Positions 12,502-35,401 of a stretch of 54,968 bases of DNA are shown here, one piece after another. The stretch comes from Verrucomicrobia bacterium UBA1263 (GTDB lineage Bacteria > Verrucomicrobiota > Verrucomicrobiia > Limisphaerales > UBA1412): positions 16,177 through 71,144 of the forward strand of contig DBVN01000028.1 in assembly GCA_002308515.1 (NCBI GenBank), given 5' to 3'. A program made the position numbers and the translations under genes. How positions within the stretch are numbered: position 1 is the first letter of the stretch; every line of letters starts with the position of its first letter. The notes below the pieces were generated by a model that saw only the letters and a program-made list of their open reading frames with translations, was not told the DNA's origin and did not search any database.

Positions 12502-13542
12502 ATGAAGCAAACATTCGCTTTAACTTTGGGAGCAGTCCTGCTGACACTTGGTTCACAGGCATCCGCTCAGAACGCCGCGGATCCTTTCTATGGAGACTGG
12601 GAAGGAACGGTCAAATACAATGGACAAAACCAACAAGTGGCTGTCTGCATGATCCCCTTGGGCAACAACCGCTATGAAGCCCGGTTCTTTAAAGAATTCG
12701 GCAAACAGGATGATCCCCTCTTTTTCATCACAGGCGAGATCAAAGACGGCTCCGCTAAATTCATTGATCATGGCGCTTTCAGCTTTGATAAGGTAAAGTA
12801 TGACACTCAAGACGGGATCGTACTGGATTCGACCCTCTGGACCGGTGAAGTCAAAAACAACACCCTGAAAGGCAAGCTGGGAGGCAAGGACAAGGGCACC
12901 TTCGATCTGAAGAAAACACTGAGGACTTCCCCGACCATGGGCAAAGCGGCACCCAAAAACGCGAGGATCCTTTTAGATGGAACCGAAGCCTCCAAAGAAA
13001 ACTTTTTGGATAACGGTACTAAGAATTCCATTCGCTGGGAATTAAAGGATAACGGAGCCCTGGAAGTCAACGGCGGCGACATTATTCCCAAGAAAGGTTT
13101 CAACGACTGTGTGATGCACATCGAATTCCGCTCTCCTTATTATCCGGATCGTTTCGGTCAGGCACGCGGCAACAGCGGCGTTTATGTCAACGGTGCCTAC
13201 GAGATCCAGGTGCTGGACAGCTATGGATTGCCCGGTCTGGACAATGACTGTGCCGGCATCTATCAGATCCAGCGTCCCGCGGTCAACGTCTGTTTTCCGC
13301 CTGACTATTGGCAGACTTACGATATCGACTTCACTATGCCTCGCTTTGACGCGGACGGCAAGAAAACCGCCAACGCCCGTCTGACACTGCTGCACAACGG
13401 GGTCAAAGTCTATGACAATCTGGAGCTGCCGCACGCGACTCCGGGAGCCATCAATCCGGGTGAACGGGATCAGGTCGGACTCCTTCTGCAGGATCATGGG
13501 GATAAAGTCCAGTATCGCAATATCTGGGTTCTGGAGAAATAA
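12502..13542 (+). CDS. DUF1080 (3-keto-disaccharide hydrolase-like) domain protein, secreted
   Basis: Chosen start is ATG 12502, giving signal peptide MKQTFALTLGAVLLTLGSQASAQ; the track start 12418 overlaps the SNF gene. C-terminal DUF1080 pattern: NSGVYVNGAYEIQVLDS, ...LLLQDHGDKVQYRNIWV. Confidence 0.8.
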   Translation: MKQTFALTLGAVLLTLGSQASAQNAADPFYGDWEGTVKYNGQNQQVAVCMIPLGNNRYEARFFKEFGKQDDPLFFITGEIKDGSAKFIDHGAFSFDKVKYDTQDGIVLDSTLWTGEVKNNTLKGKLGGKDKGTFDLKKTLRTSPTMGKAAPKNARILLDGTEASKENFLDNGTKNSIRWELKDNGALEVNGGDIIPKKGFNDCVMHIEFRSPYYPDRFGQARGNSGVYVNGAYEIQVLDSYGLPGLDNDCAGIYQIQRPAVNVCFPPDYWQTYDIDFTMPRFDADGKKTANARLTLLHNGVKVYDNLELPHATPGAINPGERDQVGLLLQDHGDKVQYRNIWVLEK

Positions 13543-13562
13543 GATCTCCACTCCATAAAGCA

Positions 13563-13593
13563 AAAGAGACGGGATGTTTTCTCGTCTCTTTTA
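13563..13593. terminator. rho-independent terminator shared by convergent genes
   Basis: Stem AAAGAGACG / CGTCTCTTT (13563-13571 / 13583-13591), 11-nt loop, T-rich tail on plus. Overlaps the stop codon of the minus-strand gene ending at 13591. Confidence 0.7.
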
Positions 13594-14037
13594 TTTCTGA
13601 TCCTCTTCTAAGAAATCTGCCAAGGGCTTCATTTGACGTATTTCTTTTTTATCGATTTGTTTTAATGTACGATCACCATAAATTCCCCAATACTGTTTAT
13701 TCCAGCGGATGCGGATCGCAAAAAAAAGTGCATCAGGAGAAACAGCCTCATTGGTTGAGAGAAAAATCCCTGAAGGTTCTAAAAAAGTTCTTACTCCCGA
13801 TTCAGTGGCCAAAAATTTCACCTTATCTTGAAATACCATTGGTGAGGATTTCTCATAGTAAATATCGTAATACCGATACATCTCGCTTTGTAAAGCTCCT
13901 AACATTTCCTGTCGGCAGTGTCTACATTGCATATAGCTTGCAAAGACCCCCATCCCAAATATAATAGACAGGATGATTCCTACTACGATCAATTCTTCCT
14001 TTGTTCGATGATTCATAACATTTTTATAAAAAGGCAC
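13591..14037 (-). CDS. hypothetical membrane-anchored protein (AT-rich cassette, gene 4)
   Basis: 148 aa with one N-terminal TM helix (LIVVGIILSIIFGMGVFASY) and CRHC just after it. GTG at 14037 or ATG at 14016. No family recognised. Confidence 0.55.
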   Translation of the reverse strand: MPFYKNVMNHRTKEELIVVGIILSIIFGMGVFASYMQCRHCRQEMLGALQSEMYRYYDIYYEKSSPMVFQDKVKFLATESGVRTFLEPSGIFLSTNEAVSPDALFFAIRIRWNKQYWGIYGDRTLKQIDKKEIRQMKPLADFLEEDQK

Positions 14038-14083
14038 TAATTAAAATCATAAAGCACCATTAGTTTTTATACAAACACTCCGC

Positions 14084-14344
14084 TTATTGGCTCAAACTTA
14101 TTGTCGATAATATCAATCCAACTATCAGTACCATCCACACAATAAAGGTAACACCATACCCATTCAATTTGTCGCGGTATTTCTTTGAAATTATACCTAT
14201 TCCGAAAAGCATATTGTAAAATATTACTGATATGATCAGTGCTCTATTACTATAGGCATTACTGAAACAAAAAGCTATCGTCATTGAAATCAGAACACAA
14301 ATGGCGACCTGAACAGCATATTTATTCTTTAAATCCAATTTCAT
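14084..14344 (-). CDS. hypothetical small 3-TM membrane protein (AT-rich cassette, gene 3)
   Basis: 86 aa, ATG start, three hydrophobic helices. No family recognised. Confidence 0.5.
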   Translation of the reverse strand: MKLDLKNKYAVQVAICVLISMTIAFCFSNAYSNRALIISVIFYNMLFGIGIISKKYRDKLNGYGVTFIVWMVLIVGLILSTISLSQ

Positions 14345-14360
14345 TCTTTCTCATCAAATA

Positions 14361-14642
14361 TCACATAAACACCTTTTCAAAAGGAATTGAAAGAATTGCG
14401 CCAATAAAACTTATGAGGGTCACAAATAAGATTAATGAATATTTGAATTTGGAAAGGAACCAATCAAAATACCAGCCTGCCATCAAGATTAAATAGCCAA
14501 CGCAAACAAACATTAGTGGCTGCGCAGTAATCAATAAGGAACCCATGAAAAATAATACAAACAGTATATTTATTGAAAAATATAAAGTACATTTTGATTC
14601 TTTTTTATCCATAAAATAAACGCAATCTTTAGTATAACTCAT
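14361..14642 (-). CDS. hypothetical small 3-TM membrane protein (AT-rich cassette, gene 2)
   Basis: 93 aa with three hydrophobic helices. Its ATG (14640-14642) overlaps the stop of the upstream gene (14639-14641) in an ATGA-type junction. Confidence 0.5.
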   Translation of the reverse strand: MSYTKDCVYFMDKKESKCTLYFSINILFVLFFMGSLLITAQPLMFVCVGYLILMAGWYFDWFLSKFKYSLILFVTLISFIGAILSIPFEKVFM

Positions 14643-15787
14643 TCATATAAACGATTGAGCATTGAGATAAGCATCTTGCCTTCCGGGGTCAATGTGTAAT
14701 TATCAGAGATTTCATATTTCCCCTCATCCCGAACATAAAGCCGCCCATCCATAGACATACGGCCTCCCGCAAAGGCATATTCATAAATCAAGTAAAGGAG
14801 ATACTTTTTGTAAAACTGTATTTTATGTGAATAGTCTAATAAAATGATATGACATTTTTTTTCATTCTGTTTGGCTTCTGCTAAAATCTCAAAATATGTA
14901 TTCTCATTTGTTTTTAATAATCCCCCTGGATGAGTTGACGGTTTGTATTCTTCTTGGTGAAGCAGCAAAAATTGAAATTCTTTTTCTGTAAGAACCATTT
15001 TCCCAGAAAAAGTATTCCTCTTTAATTTTCTTAGCAAGAGACGTTCGTTCATATCCTCTTTTATTTGTGGAACTCCCCCAGCCAAACATATTTTTGCGGA
15101 TCTTAGATTATAGAGCATACACAATCTTCTGGGATCTCCATTCAGCATATCGTACATCGAATATGCTCCAATACATCCCCCCAAAACAGCAGCACATCCT
15201 GCAATCAGCAGAAAGATGAAAATTTCAATCTTTGTAAAAAGCAATCCCCAAAACATAATAAGGAGAATTCCAACAGCTGCACCACCAGCCACACCACTGA
15301 TGAATATCTTTTCCTTTCTCTCTTGTTTTTGATTAATCGAAAAACATACATCTTTTAGGATACCTCCACTTTGTGCCACTGTATTATAAATTTTAAGGAT
15401 CAGATTAATGGCAAGAAAATTTCCCAATTCTATTTCCATTCCATTCATTGATACCTTACGAAGGTACTCCTTTTTATTCCTTCCACAAGCTCCATTCCAT
15501 AAATAACCTCTTAGGAAATATATAAGAGCTCCACTTACTATAAAAAAGTATACGCGATTATTTGAAAAAAGGTGAAAACATTGGTCTATAGTGCAAACTC
15601 GACCTGGTATTATCTTCCCTTCCAGCCAACAGTTTCCATGGATCTCCATCGTAAGAAATCTTTCTTCATCTTTTGTAAGCTCCATCACACAAAATTCGTC
15701 ATCCATTTTACGAATAGATTTAAAATCCATGTCTTCCGTGTAAATGACTTCATCCGGTAAGAGTCCTCTTATATATCGAATATCCAT
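14639..15787 (-). CDS. hypothetical membrane protein with central Gly-rich TM hairpin (AT-rich cassette, gene 1)
   Basis: Start re-assigned to ATG 15787 (MDIRYIRGLL...), 20 nt after the stop of the upstream gene. Track residues 1-112 (TTG at 16123) are an out-of-frame read through the 3' end of gene 15808-17295. The central hairpin is ISGVAGGAAVGILLIMFWGLLF / IFLLIAGCAAVLGGCIGAY. Confidence 0.6.
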   Translation of the reverse strand: MDIRYIRGLLPDEVIYTEDMDFKSIRKMDDEFCVMELTKDEERFLTMEIHGNCWLEGKIIPGRVCTIDQCFHLFSNNRVYFFIVSGALIYFLRGYLWNGACGRNKKEYLRKVSMNGMEIELGNFLAINLILKIYNTVAQSGGILKDVCFSINQKQERKEKIFISGVAGGAAVGILLIMFWGLLFTKIEIFIFLLIAGCAAVLGGCIGAYSMYDMLNGDPRRLCMLYNLRSAKICLAGGVPQIKEDMNERLLLRKLKRNTFSGKMVLTEKEFQFLLLHQEEYKPSTHPGGLLKTNENTYFEILAEAKQNEKKCHIILLDYSHKIQFYKKYLLYLIYEYAFAGGRMSMDGRLYVRDEGKYEISDNYTLTPEGKMLISMLNRLYE

Positions 15788-15807
15788 GGCAATTTTGTAC
15801 AAAAGAT

Positions 15808-17295
15808 CTACTTTGAATTTGTGGAAACAAGCCAGGGATGGATCTCTTCCCATTCCTTGACACGGATATGATAGTTTGTTCCCAAGTTGGTAGAACTCCC
15901 CTCCAAAGGCAATTGGATCGCCAGACGATCTCCTGTAAAGCGGGTATCCGGATGGAAGGTCACCTTGCCGCCGACCAGCATTCCGGAGTAACTGAGCGCG
16001 TTTGTGAAAATGATTTCGCTGTAAGGCGCATAGATACGCGCGCAAAGCAGAGTATCCGGATTTCCCATGAAAATGAGCTTCTGCTCGGTATTGGTACCGC
16101 CCCATATCGTCAGGCGCTTCCAATTCTTTTCAACCGCGGCAAAGGATTTCGCGCCCAATGTCATATCCGCCGCCGGAAACAGTGTCAATTCCGATTTTTC
16201 TTCCATCGTCACAGGCGGTTCCGTCAGAACATAACCGGCAGGAATACGCAAATTCACCACGGCACCCGTTTTCAAAATGATTGGATAGAGTTCCGCAGCG
16301 GTGATTTTATAATCCCCGGAGGCATCAAACTGGTAAACCATCTGCGGAGCCTCTTTTGTCCCGATATTGACGATAGGCGCGTCTTTGCAATTCGCTTCCG
16401 CGGGACCTGACTTCGGAGGAAACAAAGCCCAATTCAGCCGTGTCAATAAATGATTGGTTTCATATCCCCAAACCGCGTTAGTAAGGAATGCCTCACTTCC
16501 AACTTTAAGGACATCCGCCGGGATCTGAACGAGATTAGTTTGGATCAGATTGGTATCTGTTTCCAACGGAAGCTGCAATCCCTGGGGCAAATAAGAAGAA
16601 GCCAGTGAATAGGTTCCCTGAATAACATTGCTGCCTTTGAAAGAATCTATATTGGGGTATGCGGCGGAAATGACCCGGACACCGTCATTCACATTCGTAT
16701 CAGTCCCCGCGACATTGGTGCCGGCAACAATCACATTTCCTAAAAAATCCAGTTGTCTGGAGGCGATCAGTTCACCCTGCAAAAATCCTTTATGCGCAAA
16801 AGTCTCATACTCCGTTTTTATCCGCAGGAACCGAATCAAAGGATTCGTCCCATTCAATGGATAATATCCGCCCAGAGCATAGATCTCCATCTCCGCGTCA
16901 GAAACAGGATGGAATCCCGTCACATAAAAAGCCCGCCCCTCATCCAGCGGTTCCGGTTCCGCCAGTATCGTCAGCTCACTGTTCGTGGGAAATCCCCAGT
17001 ATTCATAGCGGCCGTCATTCGTGATCCAGCGGCTCTTCAGAGCGTCGGACGAAGGAGCTGTCTCGCGGATAGCTGGGATCGTCTTCTGTGAAATCAGATA
17101 TTGAACAGTCTCATTCGCTCCGGATTCCGCGGCGGTCAATGCCAGCCGCTGCTGCATGGCCGCCATTTCGACACGAGTCTGCCCCGACACCAGAGCGATG
17201 AAGGATAATATCGTCACTGATGTCAGCAGCAAAAGCGCCAGCACGAAAACTAAAACAAAGCTCCTCTGGCGCTGGAATCCGGTTTTGATCCTCAA
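15808..17295 (-). CDS. PilX-N-like (pseudopilin-type N-terminus) exported protein
   Basis: The N-terminus QRQRSFVLVFVLALLLLTSVTILSFIALVSGQTRVEMAAMQQRLALTAAESGANE resembles the PilX_N domain (basic stretch, hydrophobic helix, AExG). The remaining roughly 430 aa have no motif I recognise. Confidence 0.45.
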   Translation of the reverse strand: MRIKTGFQRQRSFVLVFVLALLLLTSVTILSFIALVSGQTRVEMAAMQQRLALTAAESGANETVQYLISQKTIPAIRETAPSSDALKSRWITNDGRYEYWGFPTNSELTILAEPEPLDEGRAFYVTGFHPVSDAEMEIYALGGYYPLNGTNPLIRFLRIKTEYETFAHKGFLQGELIASRQLDFLGNVIVAGTNVAGTDTNVNDGVRVISAAYPNIDSFKGSNVIQGTYSLASSYLPQGLQLPLETDTNLIQTNLVQIPADVLKVGSEAFLTNAVWGYETNHLLTRLNWALFPPKSGPAEANCKDAPIVNIGTKEAPQMVYQFDASGDYKITAAELYPIILKTGAVVNLRIPAGYVLTEPPVTMEEKSELTLFPAADMTLGAKSFAAVEKNWKRLTIWGGTNTEQKLIFMGNPDTLLCARIYAPYSEIIFTNALSYSGMLVGGKVTFHPDTRFTGDRLAIQLPLEGSSTNLGTNYHIRVKEWEEIHPWLVSTNSK

Positions 17296-18188: not shown

Positions 18189-18564
18189 GGCTAAGGGGAA
18201 ACTGTAAGCCGAATTCTGTCTGCACTCTTACGAATGGAGAAGATCATTTCTCTAAGCAACCTAACCCGAAATCCCGGTTTTCACCATGAAACGGACCACT
18301 TCCAAGGATTCCCTATTTGGTCTTGCGCCGGATGGGGTTTTCCCTGCCCCGTAAATTACTCCACGGGCGGTAGTCTCTTAAGCTACCTTTTCACCCTTAC
18401 CTCTCGCGAGGCGGTATATTCTCTGCGGCACTCTCCGTGAAACAGCCTTGACGCTGTCCCCCCGTCTGTATCCTGTTCGCACAGGTTAGACGGCATCCTG
18501 TCCTGCGGCGTTCGGACTTTCCTCCCATGATTTCTCATGAGCGACCTTCCGTTACCCCAAAGCC
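18189..18564 (-). ncRNA. rnpB: RNase P RNA, bacterial type A
   Basis: The minus strand reads GGGAGGAAAGUCCGAACGCC (universal P4 5' strand) near the 5' end and ACAGAAUUCGGCUUACAG (P4 3' strand, consensus ACAGAAcccGGCUUA) near the 3' end. Also AGGGUGAAAAGGUAGCUUAAGAGACUACCGCCCGUGGAG. Terminal P1 pairing is GGCU..GGGG / CCCC..AGCC. End coordinates are approximate, within a few nt. Confidence 0.9.
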
Positions 18565-30088: not shown

Positions 30089-31063
30089 ATGAGCGAAACA
30101 ACTTATTACTTTGAAAACATCAGACTGGCTCAGCAGCTTTTTCACGGAAACATCCCTAATCTCAAGGCTCTTGAAACCCAATTTGATGTTAAAACAGTCG
30201 CGCGGGATAACTGGATCCGAATCGAAGGAGAACCTGCTGTTGTTGAAAGAGTCGAAAAGATCCTTCAGATGATCGAAGACTCGGTCAAAAACGGTATCAT
30301 CGTTCGAGCCAGCGACTTCTCTCATGCCATCAAAGTTGCTGAGCAAGACGGCTTGGAAACACTGCGCACACTTCAGGCATCCCGTATTTATACCTCCGCG
30401 CGCAAGCCTGTTATCATTCCCAAAACTCTTGGTCAACGCCAGTATGTGGAACTCATTCGCCAAAATGATATTACATTTGGAGTAGGTCCGGCCGGAACCG
30501 GCAAAACCTATCTGGCTATGGCTATGGCGGTCGCGGCTCTCAAAGAAGAGAAATGCACACGGCTCATTTTAACACGTCCAGCAGTGGAAGCCGGCGAGGC
30601 TTTGGGATTCCTTCCCGGAGATCTTCAGGAGAAAATCACTCCCTATCTGCGTCCTCTTTATGACGCGCTTTATGACATGATGCCTTCCGAGGACGTTCTC
30701 AAACATCAGGAACGCGCCACCATTGAGATCGCTCCTCTGGCTTATATGCGCGGACGTACACTGAACAACTCCTTTGTCATACTGGACGAAGCACAGAACG
30801 CGACACGGGAACAGATCCTCATGTTCCTCACCCGTATGGGAATCAATACTAAGATCGTGATCACGGGTGATCCTTCTCAAGTGGATCTGCCGTATCCCCG
30901 GAAATCCGGTCTTCCGGAAGCTCTCTATCTGCTGAAAAATATTCCCGGCATCGGTATCAAAGAATTTCAGAAACGTGACGTGGTGCGCCATCCTCTGGTT
31001 CAACGCATCATCCAGGCTTATGAAACCGAAAAAGCTCAAACATCCCGATCTTCCGGCCATTAA
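30089..31063 (+). CDS. phoH: PhoH-family ATPase
   Basis: Walker A GPAGTGKTYLAMA, plus ILTRPAVEAGEALGFLPGD, FVILDEAQN and GDPSQVDLP. Confidence 0.95.
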   Translation: MSETTYYFENIRLAQQLFHGNIPNLKALETQFDVKTVARDNWIRIEGEPAVVERVEKILQMIEDSVKNGIIVRASDFSHAIKVAEQDGLETLRTLQASRIYTSARKPVIIPKTLGQRQYVELIRQNDITFGVGPAGTGKTYLAMAMAVAALKEEKCTRLILTRPAVEAGEALGFLPGDLQEKITPYLRPLYDALYDMMPSEDVLKHQERATIEIAPLAYMRGRTLNNSFVILDEAQNATREQILMFLTRMGINTKIVITGDPSQVDLPYPRKSGLPEALYLLKNIPGIGIKEFQKRDVVRHPLVQRIIQAYETEKAQTSRSSGH

Positions 31064-31544
31064 GACACAACCACCGGCTGACAGTTTTATCTTAACCTTT
31101 CGCAATCTTCACCCTGGGTTTCGTTTCAATATCCCTCTTTGCCGTCCTGTCGTTCTGCTGCTGCTTTCCCGAATGGGTGTTAAAAAAGCGGAACTCAGCT
31201 GGTATTTCGTAAACGCCAAACGCATGGCCTGTGTGAATGAAAAATACCTGGGGCACGAAGGTTCCACAGATGTCATTACTTTTCAGTATCTCCAACATCC
31301 CCAAAAAGATATTCTCTTTGGCGATGTCTTCATCTGTATTGATGAAGCGCACTATTACGCAAAAGAGTTCCAGACGACACCTCAAAGCGAAACTCTCCGC
31401 TATCTCATTCATTCTATCCTTCATTTACAGGATTTTGATGATATTGATCCCGCAGATAGAAAAATCATGAAATCACATGAAAACAAGTGGGTTAAATGGA
31501 TCGAATCCCAATTAAACATGGACCAGATTCTTTTAAAACGCTGA
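31020..31544 (+). CDS. ybeY: rRNA maturation endoribonuclease YbeY
   Basis: TDVITFQY and the zinc motif HSILHLQDFDD (H-x3-H-x5-D/H). ATG 31020 chosen; it overlaps the phoH end by 44 nt and the start is uncertain. Confidence 0.85.
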   Translation: MKPKKLKHPDLPAIKTQPPADSFILTFRNLHPGFRFNIPLCRPVVLLLLSRMGVKKAELSWYFVNAKRMACVNEKYLGHEGSTDVITFQYLQHPQKDILFGDVFICIDEAHYYAKEFQTTPQSETLRYLIHSILHLQDFDDIDPADRKIMKSHENKWVKWIESQLNMDQILLKR

Positions 31545-31744
31545 TTTTTTCATTTTTCAGAAAAAAATTAAGATTCTTGTTGTTTTCAATAAGCCCAGAG
31601 CTTGACCAGTCAAGTTATTTGCTTCCAAATAAAAGCCTTGCAAGCTTATTGCAAGCGTGAAAAAGGAAAGCTGATCTTGTGTTTTTTAGTCTTTTGATCC
31701 GTGATCTTTTTCTGATCCACACGGAGACACCATGCAGAAAACAA

Positions 31745-31775
31745 AAAAAGCCTTTCTAGGGCTTTTGCTTTCTTT
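31745..31775 (+). terminator. candidate terminator about 200 nt downstream of ybeY
   Basis: Stem AAAGCC / GGCTTT (31747-31752 / about 31760-31765) followed by TGCTTTCTTTTGTGTGTTT. Confidence 0.4.
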
Positions 31776-31792
31776 TGTGTGTTTGTGTCCAG

Positions 31793-31830
31793 GTAACAAA
31801 AAAAGCCCTTCAAAAAGGGCTTTCTGTTTT
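31793..31830 (-). terminator. rho-independent terminator of the minus-strand cassette (also usable on plus)
   Basis: Stem AAGCCCTT / AAGGGCTT (31803-31810 / 31815-31822) with a 4-nt loop. An A-run on plus before it gives a U-tract on the minus strand. It sits 13-20 nt downstream of the stop at 31843. Confidence 0.75.
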
Positions 31831-31842
31831 CTGATCTACTTT

Positions 31843-32169
31843 TTAAGGAACGCGCGGCACTCCATACTTTCTGTGTCTTGCTTCCTCTGTTTGCCAGCTC
31901 ATTTTATAGTAGGTGCTGTTTGTGTGAACGGGGTCTGTTTTGGGGTCTTTTGGCTGTCCGTCTAGTGGTTTGAATAATTCAGCAAAAGGCGGATCTTTTT
32001 TCTCTTCAAAAGCGCTTGCTATTGCTCCAATTATTAGAAGCAAAGCAAAAAAACCAATAATCGGAGCCCAAACAATCAGCACAAGCCGGTTCTGTTGCTT
32101 GTCGTTCAATGTTGAGCAGACGGCAACACCGGCGGCAATGTCTTTTTTAAGTGAATGCTTTTTACCCAT
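31843..32169 (-). CDS. hypothetical single-pass membrane protein (cassette gene 5)
   Basis: 108 aa. TM helix LVLIVWAPIIGFFALLLIIGAIASAF and a Pro/Lys-rich C-terminal tail. Starts 2 nt after the stop of the ligase-like gene. Confidence 0.55.
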   Translation of the reverse strand: MGKKHSLKKDIAAGVAVCSTLNDKQQNRLVLIVWAPIIGFFALLLIIGAIASAFEEKKDPPFAELFKPLDGQPKDPKTDPVHTNSTYYKMSWQTEEARHRKYGVPRVP

Positions 32170-32171
32170 AA

Positions 32172-32816
32172 CTACAACACACCCCCTTTATAAGCAAATT
32201 TCTGCCCATCTGCAAGCTGAATCACCCATCCATCGCAAGGCGTACCGTTCCAATCTGTGGGAATTTCCCGCGGTGGGTGTCCCTCCTCTGTCCCCGTGCA
32301 CCAGTGAGACTTGAGCCACCAGGCACCAGGCTTCAGAAAGCCCTTGCATATATCCGCACAGAGTTGCGCACGTCCTCCGGCCTCTATGGTGTATAAAAGT
32401 TCAAATTCAAAAACCGTGTTACTACACGGGGCCGGAGAGCTGATAATCCTCGCCAGGTCTTTTCCAATTCTTCCGTTTCCCCTGGTAACCCAATGATCCC
32501 CTTTTTCATCAGAAAAAGTCTGTAAAAAGATTCCATCATGCTTGGGCCAATAGCGGATCGCTTTCCTGGCTATTTCCCAGGATACTTTTTTTAATCCGTA
32601 ATTAGGTACTGCAAGCTTGTAGTCTGGATACCTTGCCCAACCTTTGAGCGTTCGCGGTGGCTTGCAAATATTGCCACAATCCGCGCTCATTGCGTCATAA
32701 TCAGCATCAGAAAGCCCAGTTTCTTTCCCTTGCCAGTAAAGCGCGTCCGCTTTTTTTAATTCGTTCCGCTCCCAGCGGATCGCATCCAATGGTGCACTCT
32801 CAAAACTCATACTCAT
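32172..32816 (-). CDS. stand-alone NAD+-dependent-ligase (LigA)-like adenylation domain protein, 214 aa
   Basis: Domain-Ia-like ALYWQGKETGLSDADYD. Motif I WPKHDGIF (KxDG), followed by VTRGNGRIGKDL (compare LigA TRGDGxxGEDI). FEFELLY resembles motif III, DGWVIQ motif IV and FAYKGG motif V. No OB, Zn-finger, HhH or BRCT region. Confidence 0.6.
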   Translation of the reverse strand: MSMSFESAPLDAIRWERNELKKADALYWQGKETGLSDADYDAMSADCGNICKPPRTLKGWARYPDYKLAVPNYGLKKVSWEIARKAIRYWPKHDGIFLQTFSDEKGDHWVTRGNGRIGKDLARIISSPAPCSNTVFEFELLYTIEAGGRAQLCADICKGFLKPGAWWLKSHWCTGTEEGHPPREIPTDWNGTPCDGWVIQLADGQKFAYKGGVL

Positions 32817-32884
32817 ACTTTTTCCTTTTTAAAGTTAGGGGAGCTTTTCAGCTCCCCTTGTGTTGCTGTGTTTAACCCCGGCTT

Positions 32885-32968
32885 TTATATCCTCTTAGTT
32901 ATTAAAAACTTGAGAAGGTTAAAAAGCCAGTTGATGCAAAAGGCCACACTGATCAATAACTTCATCAT
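32885..32968 (-). CDS. candidate 27-aa hydrophobic peptide (not in ORF track)
   Basis: The minus strand translates to MMKLLISVAFCINWLFNLLKFLITKRI: one hydrophobic helix plus a basic C-terminus. No clear SD. Lies between cassette genes. Confidence 0.25.
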   Translation of the reverse strand: MMKLLISVAFCINWLFNLLKFLITKRI

Positions 32969-33023
32969 CAGAATTCAGTAAATTTATTCCAACGCACCCC
33001 TCGACAGCCAATCCATCTTGATC

Positions 33024-33515
33024 CTAATCGTTTAATGTCATGGAATCAGCGATATTCTCAGACGCAACAAAATCTTTAAAACGCCGGAAAAGTGCCCAAT
33101 TCTTTGTATGATAACAAAATGCGAGTAACCAATCCTCACGCAAGAAATACAACCGCGCGCCCAACACGTTCCAGCAATAAAAATCTGAACCAAAGTTTGT
33201 CAAATAATGCTCATCACCAAACTTCGCTGGGAACGCTGAATAAGGCATTGCGCCTGGTGTGATCAAATAATAATCGCCTTCAATTTCTGCTATATTTACT
33301 TCATACTCACCAACCTCAACCGTTGCAAGCACTTTTGGTAGACATTCCTTGAGATCAATATATTCTCCTGAATAGGGATGTCGAATAATTCCATCAATGC
33401 AATTAAAATTGACTTTTTTTACAATAACGACATTTTCACTTTTTACATTTTCCATATTATCTATTCTTTCTAGGTCTTTTTTGTGGCTGGGGAAAAGACC
33501 TAAACCCCTCGGCAT
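33024..33515 (-). CDS. hypothetical protein (cassette gene 2), no recognisable family
   Basis: 163 aa and soluble. ATG 33515 preceded by AGAGG. Alternative ATG at 33455 (MENVK). Confidence 0.55.
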   Translation of the reverse strand: MPRGLGLFPSHKKDLERIDNMENVKSENVVIVKKVNFNCIDGIIRHPYSGEYIDLKECLPKVLATVEVGEYEVNIAEIEGDYYLITPGAMPYSAFPAKFGDEHYLTNFGSDFYCWNVLGARLYFLREDWLLAFCYHTKNWALFRRFKDFVASENIADSMTLND

Positions 33516-33617
33516 TTATTTGCCTCTGAACCGCTTAATCAGCTTCCAGAGCCCGCTGGCTAAAAAGGCCATTGTGGCCGTCAAATTCGCCAGCAAGAAA
33601 AGTTTTAATAAAATCAT
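33516..33617 (-). CDS. candidate 33-aa hydrophobic peptide (not in ORF track), stop abuts the next ATG
   Basis: The minus strand translates to MILLKLFLLANLTATMAFLASGLWKLIKRFRGK. AAAGG lies 8-9 nt before the ATG (33615-33617). Its TAA (33516-33518) is immediately followed by the ATG of gene 33024-33515. Confidence 0.4.
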   Translation of the reverse strand: MILLKLFLLANLTATMAFLASGLWKLIKRFRGK

Positions 33618-33947
33618 ATTTTAACCTTTCCATTTACGAGCACTGTTGCTACCATTTCGCCCGTGAATTTTATTTCATAGCCCCTTTGCAAGTGATCCAC
33701 ACCGCGGGGGCTCTTTTTTACCCTCGCTCAGCCCGCGAGCATTGCGCACACACGCAACGGAAAAAATCTACAACAAAAACAAAAAAAATCAATATGCCTG
33801 ACCTTCTAACGCCCTTGACATCAAAAAGATGCGTTTTTATTTACCGTAAAGCATTTTATATACCATTGGTAGATTTTAGCCGAAATTTTGACGCAAAAAG
33901 GAACGGATCCAAAAAATCGAGTTTGCTCTTTTTTTGGAGCTTTTTCC

Positions 33948-34012
33948 GCGCGAATAGAAACGAGCAGGCGAGTAGAACGACCAGGCGAATAGCAGACGAT
34001 TCAGGCGACTGA
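33948..34012 (+). repeat. four direct copies of a (A/G)(G/C)GCGA-N-T-R-R decamer at 17-20 nt spacing
   Basis: GCGCGAATAG (33948), AGGCGAGTAG (33966), AGGCGAATAG (33983), AGGCGACTGA (34003). Located about 140 nt upstream of the efflux-operon start. Confidence 0.6.
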
Positions 34013-34153
34013 TACAGATTAAAAAAAAATTTTTACACAAAATCATCCTATCCTGGTTCTTTATAAGGTGGCGGACATTGTTATTGTCTTCGCCACAGTT
34101 AGAAATTATTATGGTTTCGGGTTCATGGTAAGAATCTAAAACGGGATATAAAT

Positions 34154-35401
34154 ATGAGTAAGAAGAAAAAATCAAAATTCTTTTACATTTTCTGGACGAT
34201 CATTTTGCTGTTCATCATCGGAAACGTAGTCGCGTACTTCCTGATGAAAGCGGAAAAGCCTATTGAAGTACAAACCGATACCGTTCAAAAGCGTAATATC
34301 ACGGAAATCGTCACCGCCAATGGGAAGATCCAGCCTGTTACTTATGTAAAAATCAGCTCTGAAGTCTCCGGTGAGATCATTCAGCTGCCGGTCAGCGAAG
34401 GTCAGATGGTACACAAAGGTGACCTGCTTTTCAGTGTGAAACCGGATCTTTACATTGCCAGCAGTAATTCCGCGGCGGCCAGCTTACAGTCAGCTTTGGG
34501 CAGCCGGGATATCTCTTTGGCTTCGCTGAAAAAATGGGAAGCGGAATGGGAACGCGCTAAAGGTCTTTATGAGAATAATCTGCTTTCCAAGGCCAATTAT
34601 GATGATATCGTCAATTCTTACACCGCCGCCAAATTCACTTATACTAATTCCATTCACCAGGTTACCATGTCTCAGGCGGCTCTGGATCGCGCTTCAGAGG
34701 ATCTGAGCAAATGTATCATCTATTCCCCTCTGGACGGCACCGTCTCCAAGTTGAATTCCGAATTAGGTGAACGAGTGGTCGGAACAGGAACTTACAGCGG
34801 TACAGAAGTCATGACGATTTCAGACTTGAATCACATGGAAGCCCGTGTGGACATCGGCGAAATGGATATCAATCTTATCTCTCTGGGACAGAAAGCCTGG
34901 CTGGATGTAGATGCTTTTCATGATCAAAAGTTTGTCGGCACCGTTTCTCAAATTGCGAATACCGCAAACAGCAGCAGCACCACTGAGGCTACTAAATTTG
35001 AGGTTCGTATCCTTATCACAGACAAAGAAGCTTTTCGTCCGGGAATGTCTGTCACCTCTGAAATCGAGACACGCTACCGGACAAATGTCCTGTCTGTGCC
35101 GATCCAATCCGTGACTACTCGTCTGAAAGCTCAGGCAACCAATACCACAGCCGATGTAAAACCGCCGACCGTCTCTGAGGATCCCACCAAGTCAAAATCC
35201 ATGGAAAGCCTTATTGAGGAAGTCGTCTTTGTCGTAAATGGCGATCGGGTCGAAAAACGCCTGGTCAAGCGCGGCATCAGCGATGACAATTACACGGAAA
35301 TCCTTGAAGGACTTCAAGAAGGAGAGGAAATCGTCAGCGGCGGCTATAAGGCCATCAGCAAGGATCTTGAAGACGGCAAACTCATCCTGGTCAAACCCTA
35401 G
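34154..35401 (+). CDS. efflux transporter periplasmic adaptor (HlyD/MacA-type membrane fusion protein)
   Basis: N-terminal TM anchor, lipoyl/hairpin/beta-barrel pattern ([23 protein letters not shown], ...[10 protein letters not shown]...), followed by ABC genes. Confidence 0.85.

Follow-up and report, generated by a model that had tools for sequence, protein, structure and literature searches.

The stretch of DNA analyzed here, referred to below as the window, comprises 54,968 nt of contig DBVN01000028.1 of the Verrucomicrobia bacterium UBA1263, and all coordinates are given in its numbering. Between ybeY and an efflux operon the window carries a string of five open reading frames (ORFs) on the minus strand, which encode, in the order of transcription, a 33-aa hydrophobic peptide (33516-33617), a 163-aa orphan protein (33024-33515), a 27-aa peptide (32885-32968), a 214-aa protein resembling the nucleotidyltransferase (NTase) part of the NAD+-dependent DNA ligase LigA (32172-32816) and a 108-aa membrane protein (31843-32169). 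An earlier sequence-only reading of the window had located all five ORFs correctly and had proposed that they form an inserted module, passively acquired and devoid of integrase or transposase genes, with a direct decamer repeat, TGATCCACAC, as the scar of its insertion. Its naming of the two flanks was confirmed by Pfam families. The ybeY gene (31020-31544, plus strand), which lies to the left, outside the insert, was assigned by a match to PF02130 on an identical product. The operon on the right is of the ABC/MacB type and opens with the gene of a MacA/HlyD-like periplasmic adaptor (34154-35401, plus strand; BSH_RND and Beta-barrel_YknX), followed by genes with ABC_tran and MacB_PCD/FtsX domains.

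Comparison with close strains showed that the DNA between these flanks is an insertion. Contig L089, retrieved by an exact-sequence look-up of the adaptor protein, has flanks that are 98.4–99.4% identical to those of the window, and in it ybeY is followed by the efflux operon across a spacer of 135 bp; it matches the window to position 31557 and resumes at 34030. A look-up of the exact YbeY protein gave 11 contigs, and all four of those listed had the empty site, the other seven being described as similar. L089 and these four contigs carry one identical junction, GATTTTTTCATTTTTTTCACACAAAATC, and alignment to the empty-site contigs defined the inserted module as positions 31558-34029, a length of 2,472 bp. 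The arrangement that the sequence-only reading had anticipated in related genomes, with ybeY directly before the efflux operon, was found in all five contigs, and its proposal of a passively acquired module without integrase or transposase was upheld. The boundaries it had drawn were different, the real edges being at 31557/31558 and 34029/34030.

Both junctions are located in A/T homopolymer runs (left, CATTTTT/CAGAAAAAAATT; right, AAAAAAATTTTT/ACACAAAATC; the slash marks the junction), and a run of five T residues (T5) is all that the two have in common. No inverted repeats were found at the junctions, nor was there any integrase fragment, tRNA or att-like repeat, and the module contains no integrase, transposase or recombinase gene. 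The insert has a GC content of 42.5%, lower than the 46.5% of the window as a whole. A GTDB genome scan with PhoH was of no use for the empty-site comparison, as the relatives among the matches listed were at most 62% identical. Contig L093, which had been considered as a second empty site, proved to be the window’s own right arm, and the “135-aa gene” called on it was a spurious plus-strand ORF. In the window, the corresponding 146-aa plus-strand ORF (33572-34012) spans the right arm, overlies conserved non-coding features and is most likely spurious.

Counterparts of the module were identified in phage contigs. The arms of the island are 73–90% identical at the DNA level to L001, L096, L097 and L100, with which the module is collinear, and the phage homology ends at the same two points as the chromosomal insert. 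In gene orientation, the phage sequence reads ...GAGACGG-loop-CCGTCTC-T9-GA/AAAAATTTTTT...TTTTTTCTA/AAAAAACACAAGATCAC, and the chromosome reads GTGT/AAAAATTTTTTTTT...TTTTTTTCTG/AAAAATGAAAAAATC. The 5′ end of the module in the phages abuts the terminator of the upstream gene, and the 3′ end lies just past the module’s own third terminator. Because the arms and the end points match those of the phages, the island corresponds to one whole phage transcription unit.

The gene context of these contigs was that of phages. The NTase gene in L001 and L100 lies upstream of a 1.2-kb gene-free stretch, after which come terS and genes for a GpA-type terminase, a portal protein and ClpP. L096 has phage-type flanks, and L095 has genes for a Dam-type methylase and a dUTPase upstream of the NTase gene. 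The NTase gene of L002, L005 and L094 closes a block with LRR_5, DUF2958 and ArdC and is adjoined by an integrase gene, which in L094 adjoins a tRNA. A single sequencing run was the source of both L001 and an empty-site host contig, L106. The JGI metagenomes contained no exact match to the right-arm probe.

Other features of the phage loci were also recorded. Gene-free gaps of 1.7–1.8 kb precede the operon for a 211-aa protein, DUF2958, ArdC and NTase in the integrase-type prophages (L002, 1925-3743; L005, 2110-3784; L094, 3246-5077). Rfam returned no family at gathering score in these gaps, and the tRNA next to the L094 integrase was its sole identification in the phage loci. Repeated CAAACAACACG units are present between the module and terS in L001 (7310-7400) and in the 3′ flanks of L096, L097 and L100, and these repeats may be part of a packaging (cos/pac) region. 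A phage lysis cassette of holin, endolysin and spanin, considered from the position upstream of terS, was rejected, as the central protein is a LigA-type NTase and not a lysozyme, amidase or transglycosylase.

At least three mosaic alleles of the island occupy this one chromosomal site, at which the empty state is commoner. Allele B (L088, L090 and L091) has the same junctions as the window insert. Its left arm (31558-31942) is ~99% identical to that of the window and its right arm is recognizable and more divergent; its divergent core encodes a 207-aa NTase, a different 108-aa partner and an unrelated 163-aa ORF, and contains an internal second copy of the leader. Allele C (L109 and L110) has the right half of allele B joined to yet another NTase 3′ part and to a 102-aa partner, again with the same junctions and conserved arms around a divergent core, and L111 has the allele C NTase with a 163-aa gene upstream. 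In the right flank, five single-nucleotide polymorphisms (SNPs) among the first 300 bp split all filled from all empty contigs, and the haplotypes of the left flank are common to both. The simplest reading of these patterns would be a single insertion, with subsequent spread and replacement of the core by homologous recombination. Four SNPs lie at most 95 bp from the right junction (34063, 34065, 34090 and 34122); every contig with the island has them and no empty contig does, and the piece of flank that contains them was probably carried along by the homologous recombination that moved the island. A 37-nt block at 33464-33500, with the potential to form a 9-bp hairpin (AGGTCTTTT...AAAAGACCT), is 100% identical to L088 8581-8617, within a divergent internal segment of allele B whose surroundings are only ~73% identical.

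Together, these data make it highly probable, in our judgment, that 31558-34029 represents a whole accessory transcription unit from a temperate phage, which entered the ybeY-macA spacer by a single capture in one lineage and was then reshuffled. The lack of a recombinase gene, of inverted repeats and of any duplication beyond T5 points to illegitimate, microhomology-type capture. The junctions and the collinearity are observed; the process, we infer, would have been recombination of phage DNA within the A/T runs. The island would then have spread between strains, and its core would have been swapped by homologous recombination through the conserved arms, giving the alleles and the empty site seen today. 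Read from right to left, the unit would consist of a 5′ arm (tandem repeats, a T-rich block with a palindrome, and a structured leader), the 33-aa peptide, a variable slot, the NTase, the membrane protein and three terminators. The locus represents a clean case of a whole phage unit caught in a chromosome, known together with its empty site, its phage counterpart and three mosaic alleles, and it is a good natural system for studying the gain and exchange of phage modules that lack a recombinase.

The 214-aa protein had been called LigA-like in the sequence-only reading, and on this point profile search, Foldseek and hhalign agreed. A profile search of PDB sequences returned 13 entries, of which 11 were NAD+-dependent ligases; the alignments all covered the KxDG-TRGDG region. 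The AlphaFold2 model of the protein (predicted local distance difference test, pLDDT, 85.5) gave 35 Foldseek hits in the PDB with E<0.001, every one an NAD+-dependent DNA ligase entry; the best was M. tuberculosis LigA bound to NAD+ (E 1e-7; TM-score 0.54-0.56 relative to the query). Alignment by hhalign to a 613-aa LigA-like protein (probability 97.9%, E 3e-13, 183 columns) spanned domain Ia, the PMLSL-like GLKKV segment, KxDG, TRG[DN]G and DG.V. No Pfam or NCBIfam ligase model scored on the protein, and PHROGs gave weak ligase hits only.

The motifs of the NTase fold are retained throughout the family. Invariant positions are K92-x-D94-G95 (KHDG in the window protein), T111-R-G-x-G115, G118-K119, E139-L-x-Y142, R149, D195-G-x-V198, K206, Y209-K-G211 and, with K206, K210. 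An N-terminal segment, A-D-x-x-Y-W...D..[YF]-D, is conserved across the family, and in the window protein ADALYW..(9)..SDADYD aligns with AYY...SDAEFD of LigA; no variation was seen at Y27 and D37, the conservation of D41 is 90% or higher, and either Y or F stands at position 40. Based on this alignment, domain Ia with its NMN-binding (nicotinamide mononucleotide) residues appears to be present. The protein stops 3–8 residues past motif V, so no OB, Zn-finger, HhH or BRCT domain is present. A search of 5.8 billion cluster representatives gave 21 relatives with 48–80% identity, all of 195–224 aa and none with a Pfam domain; the compact family formed 21 clusters at 90% identity and four at 50% identity. 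Among 1.84 billion representatives there were only four clusters of the compact type, and the next hits were mostly of ~600 aa, the length expected of full-length ligases. This mini-LigA family is very rare and unannotated, and adds a new, minimal form to the NAD+-ligase adenylation modules.

The gene for the 108-aa protein is the conserved partner of the NTase gene. A small gene follows that for the NTase at a distance of -14 to +15 nt in every context, and this is the only universal pair of the module. The window protein is of the single-pass type (Kyte-Doolittle maximum 2.96, residues 29-47) and is 97% identical to its counterpart in L096 and 75% identical to that in phage contig L100. A strong hydrophobic or transmembrane segment was present in eight of the nine scored genes immediately downstream of the NTase, and several of the downstream proteins share a basic N-terminal motif, K.L.KN..AG.A. 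The 1,105-bp contig L007 contains the 108-aa gene (86% identity) together with its terminator; only the last ~17 NTase codons and a non-coding stretch precede this gene, and after it comes a convergent gene whose product has an HNH-like C-terminus (DADHV...NRAKGN). This layout indicates that the membrane-protein gene also occurs without an intact NTase, in a different neighborhood.

The five ORFs had been offered in the sequence-only reading as a set that might co-occur elsewhere; only the NTase and membrane-protein pair and the small peptide were found to recur. The view that the set matched no system that could be named was borne out, as Pfam, NCBIfam and PADLOC produced nothing significant for the five ORFs and PADLOC-DB 2.0 gave no hit at E values up to 1. 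Junctions of 0–2 nt had also been noted. The 2-nt gap between the genes of the 214-aa and 108-aa proteins stood, and here and in the other copies the NTase and membrane-protein genes would be translationally coupled or overlapping. The 0-nt gap between the 33-aa and 163-aa ORFs holds only if translation begins at the upstream ATG; NCBI calls a 143-aa protein from the ATG at 33455, leaving a gap of 60 nt. The first 20 codons of the longer form overlap the 37-nt hairpin block, which in allele B lies outside the corresponding ORF, and this overlap, together with the 143-aa call, makes the 0-nt junction uncertain.

The 33-aa peptide is the first ORF of the operon and has intact homologs of 33–36 aa at the same position in L088, L001 and L097. 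These peptides share M(I/V)(L/I)(L/F)...NL(T/V)A(T/S), have Kyte-Doolittle maxima of 1.9–2.3 and a basic C-terminus, and are intact in four of five copies. The 27-aa ORF is the 3′ two-thirds of a second small-peptide allele that has been truncated at its 5′ end: its sequence is contained in a 36-aa peptide of L097, MIFLFEAFLLVNLVASVAFCINWLLNLLKFLITKKI (74% identity over 27 aa by tblastn), and the matching DNA (32874-32971) borders on the promoter region of L097. The 163-aa ORF occupies a variable cargo slot. It matched only itself among 5.8 billion proteins, it had no Pfam, PHROG, NCBIfam or PADLOC hit, and its 143-aa form was modeled by AlphaFold2 from the single sequence with a pLDDT of 42. 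The slot holds unrelated ORFs in alleles B and C; in the phages it holds a DUF7659 protein (L001), three unknown proteins (L096), or an endonuclease-like protein with DUF2958 and ArdC (L097).

Three terminator-like hairpins follow the membrane-protein gene and would insulate ybeY from the operon. The first, found by a hairpin scan at 31802-31823, directly after the 108-aa gene, lies within the region (31793-31830) where a strong terminator had been noted, and is conserved in L007, L088 and L096. The second (31746-31766) is bidirectional and conserved in all aligned copies. The third (31637-31655, minus strand; CTTGCAA-GCTTA-TTGCAAG) is conserved in L001, L088, L091, L096, L097 and L100, and a related form occurs in L002 and L003; the two arms of the window hairpin are the TTGCAAGC words on the left side of the module. 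Four GATC sites are clustered in a ~45-bp stretch of the 3′ arm (31674-31719), and part of this cluster, GATCAGAAAAAGATCAC, is conserved in phage copies. The Dam-type methyltransferase of the related phage contig L095 belongs to PF02086.

At its other end the module begins with tandem repeats of 17–18 nt, GCGAATAGAAACGACCAG (33950-33992; 2.4 copies by TRF, ~4 by eye), that are conserved in L001, L088, L096 and L097. Viewed in gene orientation, three to five tandem units of CTANTCGCCYRGTCGTT extend over 33950-34015 and over L001 4920-4990, conserved between phage and chromosome, and these repeats look like protein-binding sites. A palindrome, TTGCG-N6-CGCAA (33742-33757), lies downstream of a conserved T-rich block and is shared by the window, L088 (both copies) and L097; block and palindrome together are a candidate operator/promoter of the operon. 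On the opposite strand, a hairpin (33679-33720, plus strand; AGCCCC...GGGGCT followed by T6) contains in its loop the right copy of TGATCCACAC and the adjacent TTGCAAG. A promoter-like site on the same strand (33587-33614; TCGCCA, a 16-nt spacer and TAAAAT) lies within codons 2–11 of the small ORF, and hexamers that were comparable by eye were seen in other copies. This promoter-like site and the hairpin would give an antisense RNA of ~100 nt over the ribosome-binding site.

Based on this arrangement, we entertain the tentative possibility that the small peptide and a cis-antisense RNA form a switch like those of type I toxin-antitoxin systems, which would stabilize the island or gate the operon. 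Such a switch concerns regulation and is compatible with the capture of a phage unit. The hydrophobic peptide with its basic C-terminus and the promoter-like site within its first codons are in keeping with it, as is the finding that a hairpin with a T-run occurs on the opposite strand, 60–100 nt upstream of the small-ORF start, in five of five copies, with stems of differing sequence. However, these are just five sequences, two pairs of which are close relatives, and the covariation term was unfavorable (+1.36 kcal/mol), with double changes in three of 15 pairs. In the island, no Rfam family reached the gathering threshold, and what appeared at E values up to 1 was sub-threshold noise. In addition, the first codons could be conserved on account of the antisense promoter, or vice versa, and it is unusual for a type I toxin to head a multi-gene operon. 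The leader region is a testable candidate for antisense control.

From the enzymology of LigA, the 214-aa enzyme would be expected to bind NAD+ through domain Ia, to adenylylate itself on K92 and to release NMN, and the AMP might then be passed to a 5′-phosphate or another acceptor. Nick sealing alone is unlikely because every DNA-clamping domain is missing. The membrane partner probably tethers the enzyme to the inner membrane. We favor, with modest confidence, a role in the handling or protection of nucleic-acid ends at phage entry, or in phage-host conflict at the membrane, because in four phage contexts (L097, L002, L005 and L094) the operon also includes the anti-restriction gene ardC. 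Beyond this, we speculate, regarding it as rather doubtful, that the mini-LigA and its membrane partner form an undescribed NAD+-dependent phage-host conflict module, in which a tethered adenylyltransferase would mark or process 5′ ends at DNA entry, the operon would be free of a recombinase and would have arms permitting cargo swaps between phage and host, and a peptide/antisense-RNA switch would control it.

Several observations weigh against this account of the origin and function of the island. The empty junction reads T7 followed by C, which is not exactly what a simple T5-mediated event predicts, and the details of the crossover are ambiguous. Neither a relative of the NTase nor a match to one of the arm probes was found in IMG/VR, and tblastn gave no match in GenBank phages or PLSDB plasmids; as the phage family is absent from these collections, the phage assignment comes from metagenomic contigs with terminase, portal or integrase genes. 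The transfer would have been from phage to chromosome, a direction deduced from the commoner empty site and the gene context in the phages. No promoter passed a sigma-70 consensus scan of the gene strand of the right arm; the candidate promoter of the operon was placed by conservation. With regard to the enzyme, nearly all family members have E or Q (DGWVI[EQ]L) where LigA has its motif IV lysine (DGVVIK), a change from which catalysis may differ from that of LigA or may be impaired, and no acceptor substrate, partner OB-fold protein or phenotype is on record for the family.

Other origins of the island were weighed against the capture of a single phage unit. It is improbable that the island is a prophage remnant, left as 2.5 kb by deletions after a whole temperate phage had integrated by means of its integrase. 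The NTase and membrane-protein genes of L002, L005 and L094 do adjoin an integrase gene and the att end of a prophage, and decay there could leave these genes. However, homology of the arms to this integrase-adjacent phage type is limited to one hairpin, and the island is collinear with an internal, unpermuted segment of a phage of the L001/L096/L097 type. Its ends are those of one transcription unit, with no integrase-proximal att, and plain A/T runs stand at the junctions where a fragment of integrase, a tRNA or an att-like repeat might have been expected.

We also see very little chance that the module is itself a small mobile cassette, free of a recombinase, that moves by way of its conserved ends, perhaps aided by its own ligase-like enzyme or by a helper phage. 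The chromosome and five phage-type contigs have the same end points, each at a T-run/A-run motif, and the arms are conserved, the cargo variable and several alleles present at one chromosomal site, all of which such a cassette would show. Against this, all phage copies are at one position of related phages, so that no independent insertion event is represented; one chromosomal site is known, at which the right-flank SNPs point to a single insertion; and there are no terminal inverted repeats and no clear duplication. For a nucleotidyltransferase of the ligase superfamily acting alone, we know of no strand-transfer activity. If the module were such a cassette, related phages without it would be expected, with a clean TTTTTTTTTGAAAAAACACAAG-type empty junction.

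The remaining alternative is that of an element of ~2 kb whose site-specific or transpositional insertion duplicated TGATCCACAC, the two decamers being attL and attR or a target-site duplication, as the sequence-only reading had proposed. The strings on which that proposal was built are real: TGATCCACAC occurs as an exact direct repeat at 31713-31722 (plus strand, inside the conserved 3′ arm) and 33693-33702, on both sides of the coding string and nowhere else in the 55 kb by exact word count; TTGCAAG (33686-33692) directly precedes the right copy; and an exact word search found TTGCAAGC twice within 31638-31656. However, the decamers are not just outside the ends of the module, as had been claimed, since both lie within the inserted DNA, the left one 155 bp and the right one 327 bp from the true ends. 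The five empty-site contigs have zero copies of TGATCCACAC, where the proposal had called for one. The right copy is missing from alleles B and C, allele B having TTTTTCTGTTTTCCTCAGTGT in place of TTGCAAG-TGATCCACAC, and from the phage copies, in which the position of the left copy is also variable (GTGTGGATCA, GTGCGGATCA or TTCTGATCA in gene orientation). The repeat is therefore neither at the junctions, nor in the empty site, nor conserved among copies.

Chance accounts readily for such a repeat. The two non-coding arms (298 and 536 bp) have an exact word of at least 10 bases in common in 37% of dinucleotide-preserving shuffles, in agreement with the caveat attached to the original proposal that a 10-mer match may be fortuitous, and the naive expectation for one common 10-mer is ~0.15. 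The count over the whole window (2 observed, 0.09 expected) is not the relevant test, because the word was picked after being seen. The repeat is a chance match and no insertion scar, with no part in capture or function, and the duplication model, already refuted by the empty sites, has next to no probability left. A string in L007, TTTTCTGATCACATGG, that had been considered as the counterpart of the left decamer region was set aside, as its orientation with respect to the gene is reversed and the word CTGATC is frequent (60 copies in the window, both strands). The case of the decamer shows how an exact 10-mer around a string of genes can mislead when there is no empty-site comparison.

Elsewhere in the window, the stretch with the lowest GC content is at 13000-16000 (35%, against a mean of 46.5%), and it may be another horizontally acquired segment. 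Three long minus-strand ORFs in this part of the window (13591-14037, 14639-16123 and 15808-17295) had no Pfam match. A full-length bacterial RNase P RNA of class A was identified at 18189-18560 on the minus strand (208.9 bits).

The captured phage unit is best compared with the morons of temperate phages, a concept reportedly due to Hendrix, Juhala and colleagues, in which autonomous transcription units with their own promoter and terminator are inserted between genes. The module resembles these in being a discrete presence/absence unit with terminator hairpins, a lower GC content, no recombinase, phage homologs and variable cargo. Both presence or absence between syntenic flanks and the same genes in the same order in phage genomes, as looked for in a moron, were found. 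Unlike morons, the island lies in a bacterial chromosome without the rest of a prophage, has the same end points in phage and chromosome, and occurs as at least three alleles at one site.

With regard to its leader, the module can be compared with the type I toxin-antitoxin loci symE/symR and hok/sok, in which an antisense RNA covers the 5′ end of the toxin gene. It is like them in having a small hydrophobic ORF (<60 aa) whose ribosome-binding region is bracketed by an antisense promoter-like site and a terminator-like hairpin. It is unlike them in that the peptide gene heads an operon of four or five genes and in that no family match was obtained.

The mini-LigA has the fold and the motif order of LigA (PDB 7k72, 1tae and 5tt5), including the domain Ia pattern Y..(8-9)..D..[YF]D and the motifs GLKKV, KxDG, TRG[DN]G, E-L, DG.V and K..YKG. 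It differs from LigA in being ~100 residues shorter than the Ia and NTase region of that enzyme, in lacking OB, Zn-finger, HhH and BRCT domains, in its motif IV residue, and in always being paired with a small membrane protein. The split ligase of phage PR1 (PDB 9hu3 and 9i5i), which was among the Foldseek and profile hits, likewise has a phage-encoded LigA adenylation subunit on a separate polypeptide. The PR1 subunit, however, is of ~335 aa and works with a second, DNA-binding subunit, and no conserved OB or HhH partner gene was found for the mini-LigA family, the membrane protein being its sole conserved neighbor. If the family is active, the known uses of the NAD+-ligase fold would reach beyond nick sealing.

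Stand-alone NLig-Ia domains have been described in 81 phages and proposed to be NAD+ sensors, with NAD+ ligase catalytic modules occurring only in viruses of more than ~68 kb (PMC9503650). The two longest contigs with a mini-LigA gene are of ~50 kb, with the gene near one end. Like the stand-alone domains, the mini-LigA is a phage-borne fragment of an NAD+ ligase, keeps the NAD+-binding residues of domain Ia and is found in phages without a full ligase. In contrast to them it keeps the catalytic NTase core with its invariant KxDG lysine, and this combination of domain Ia with a minimal NTase, on contigs of ~50 kb, is a form additional to those described in PMC9503650.

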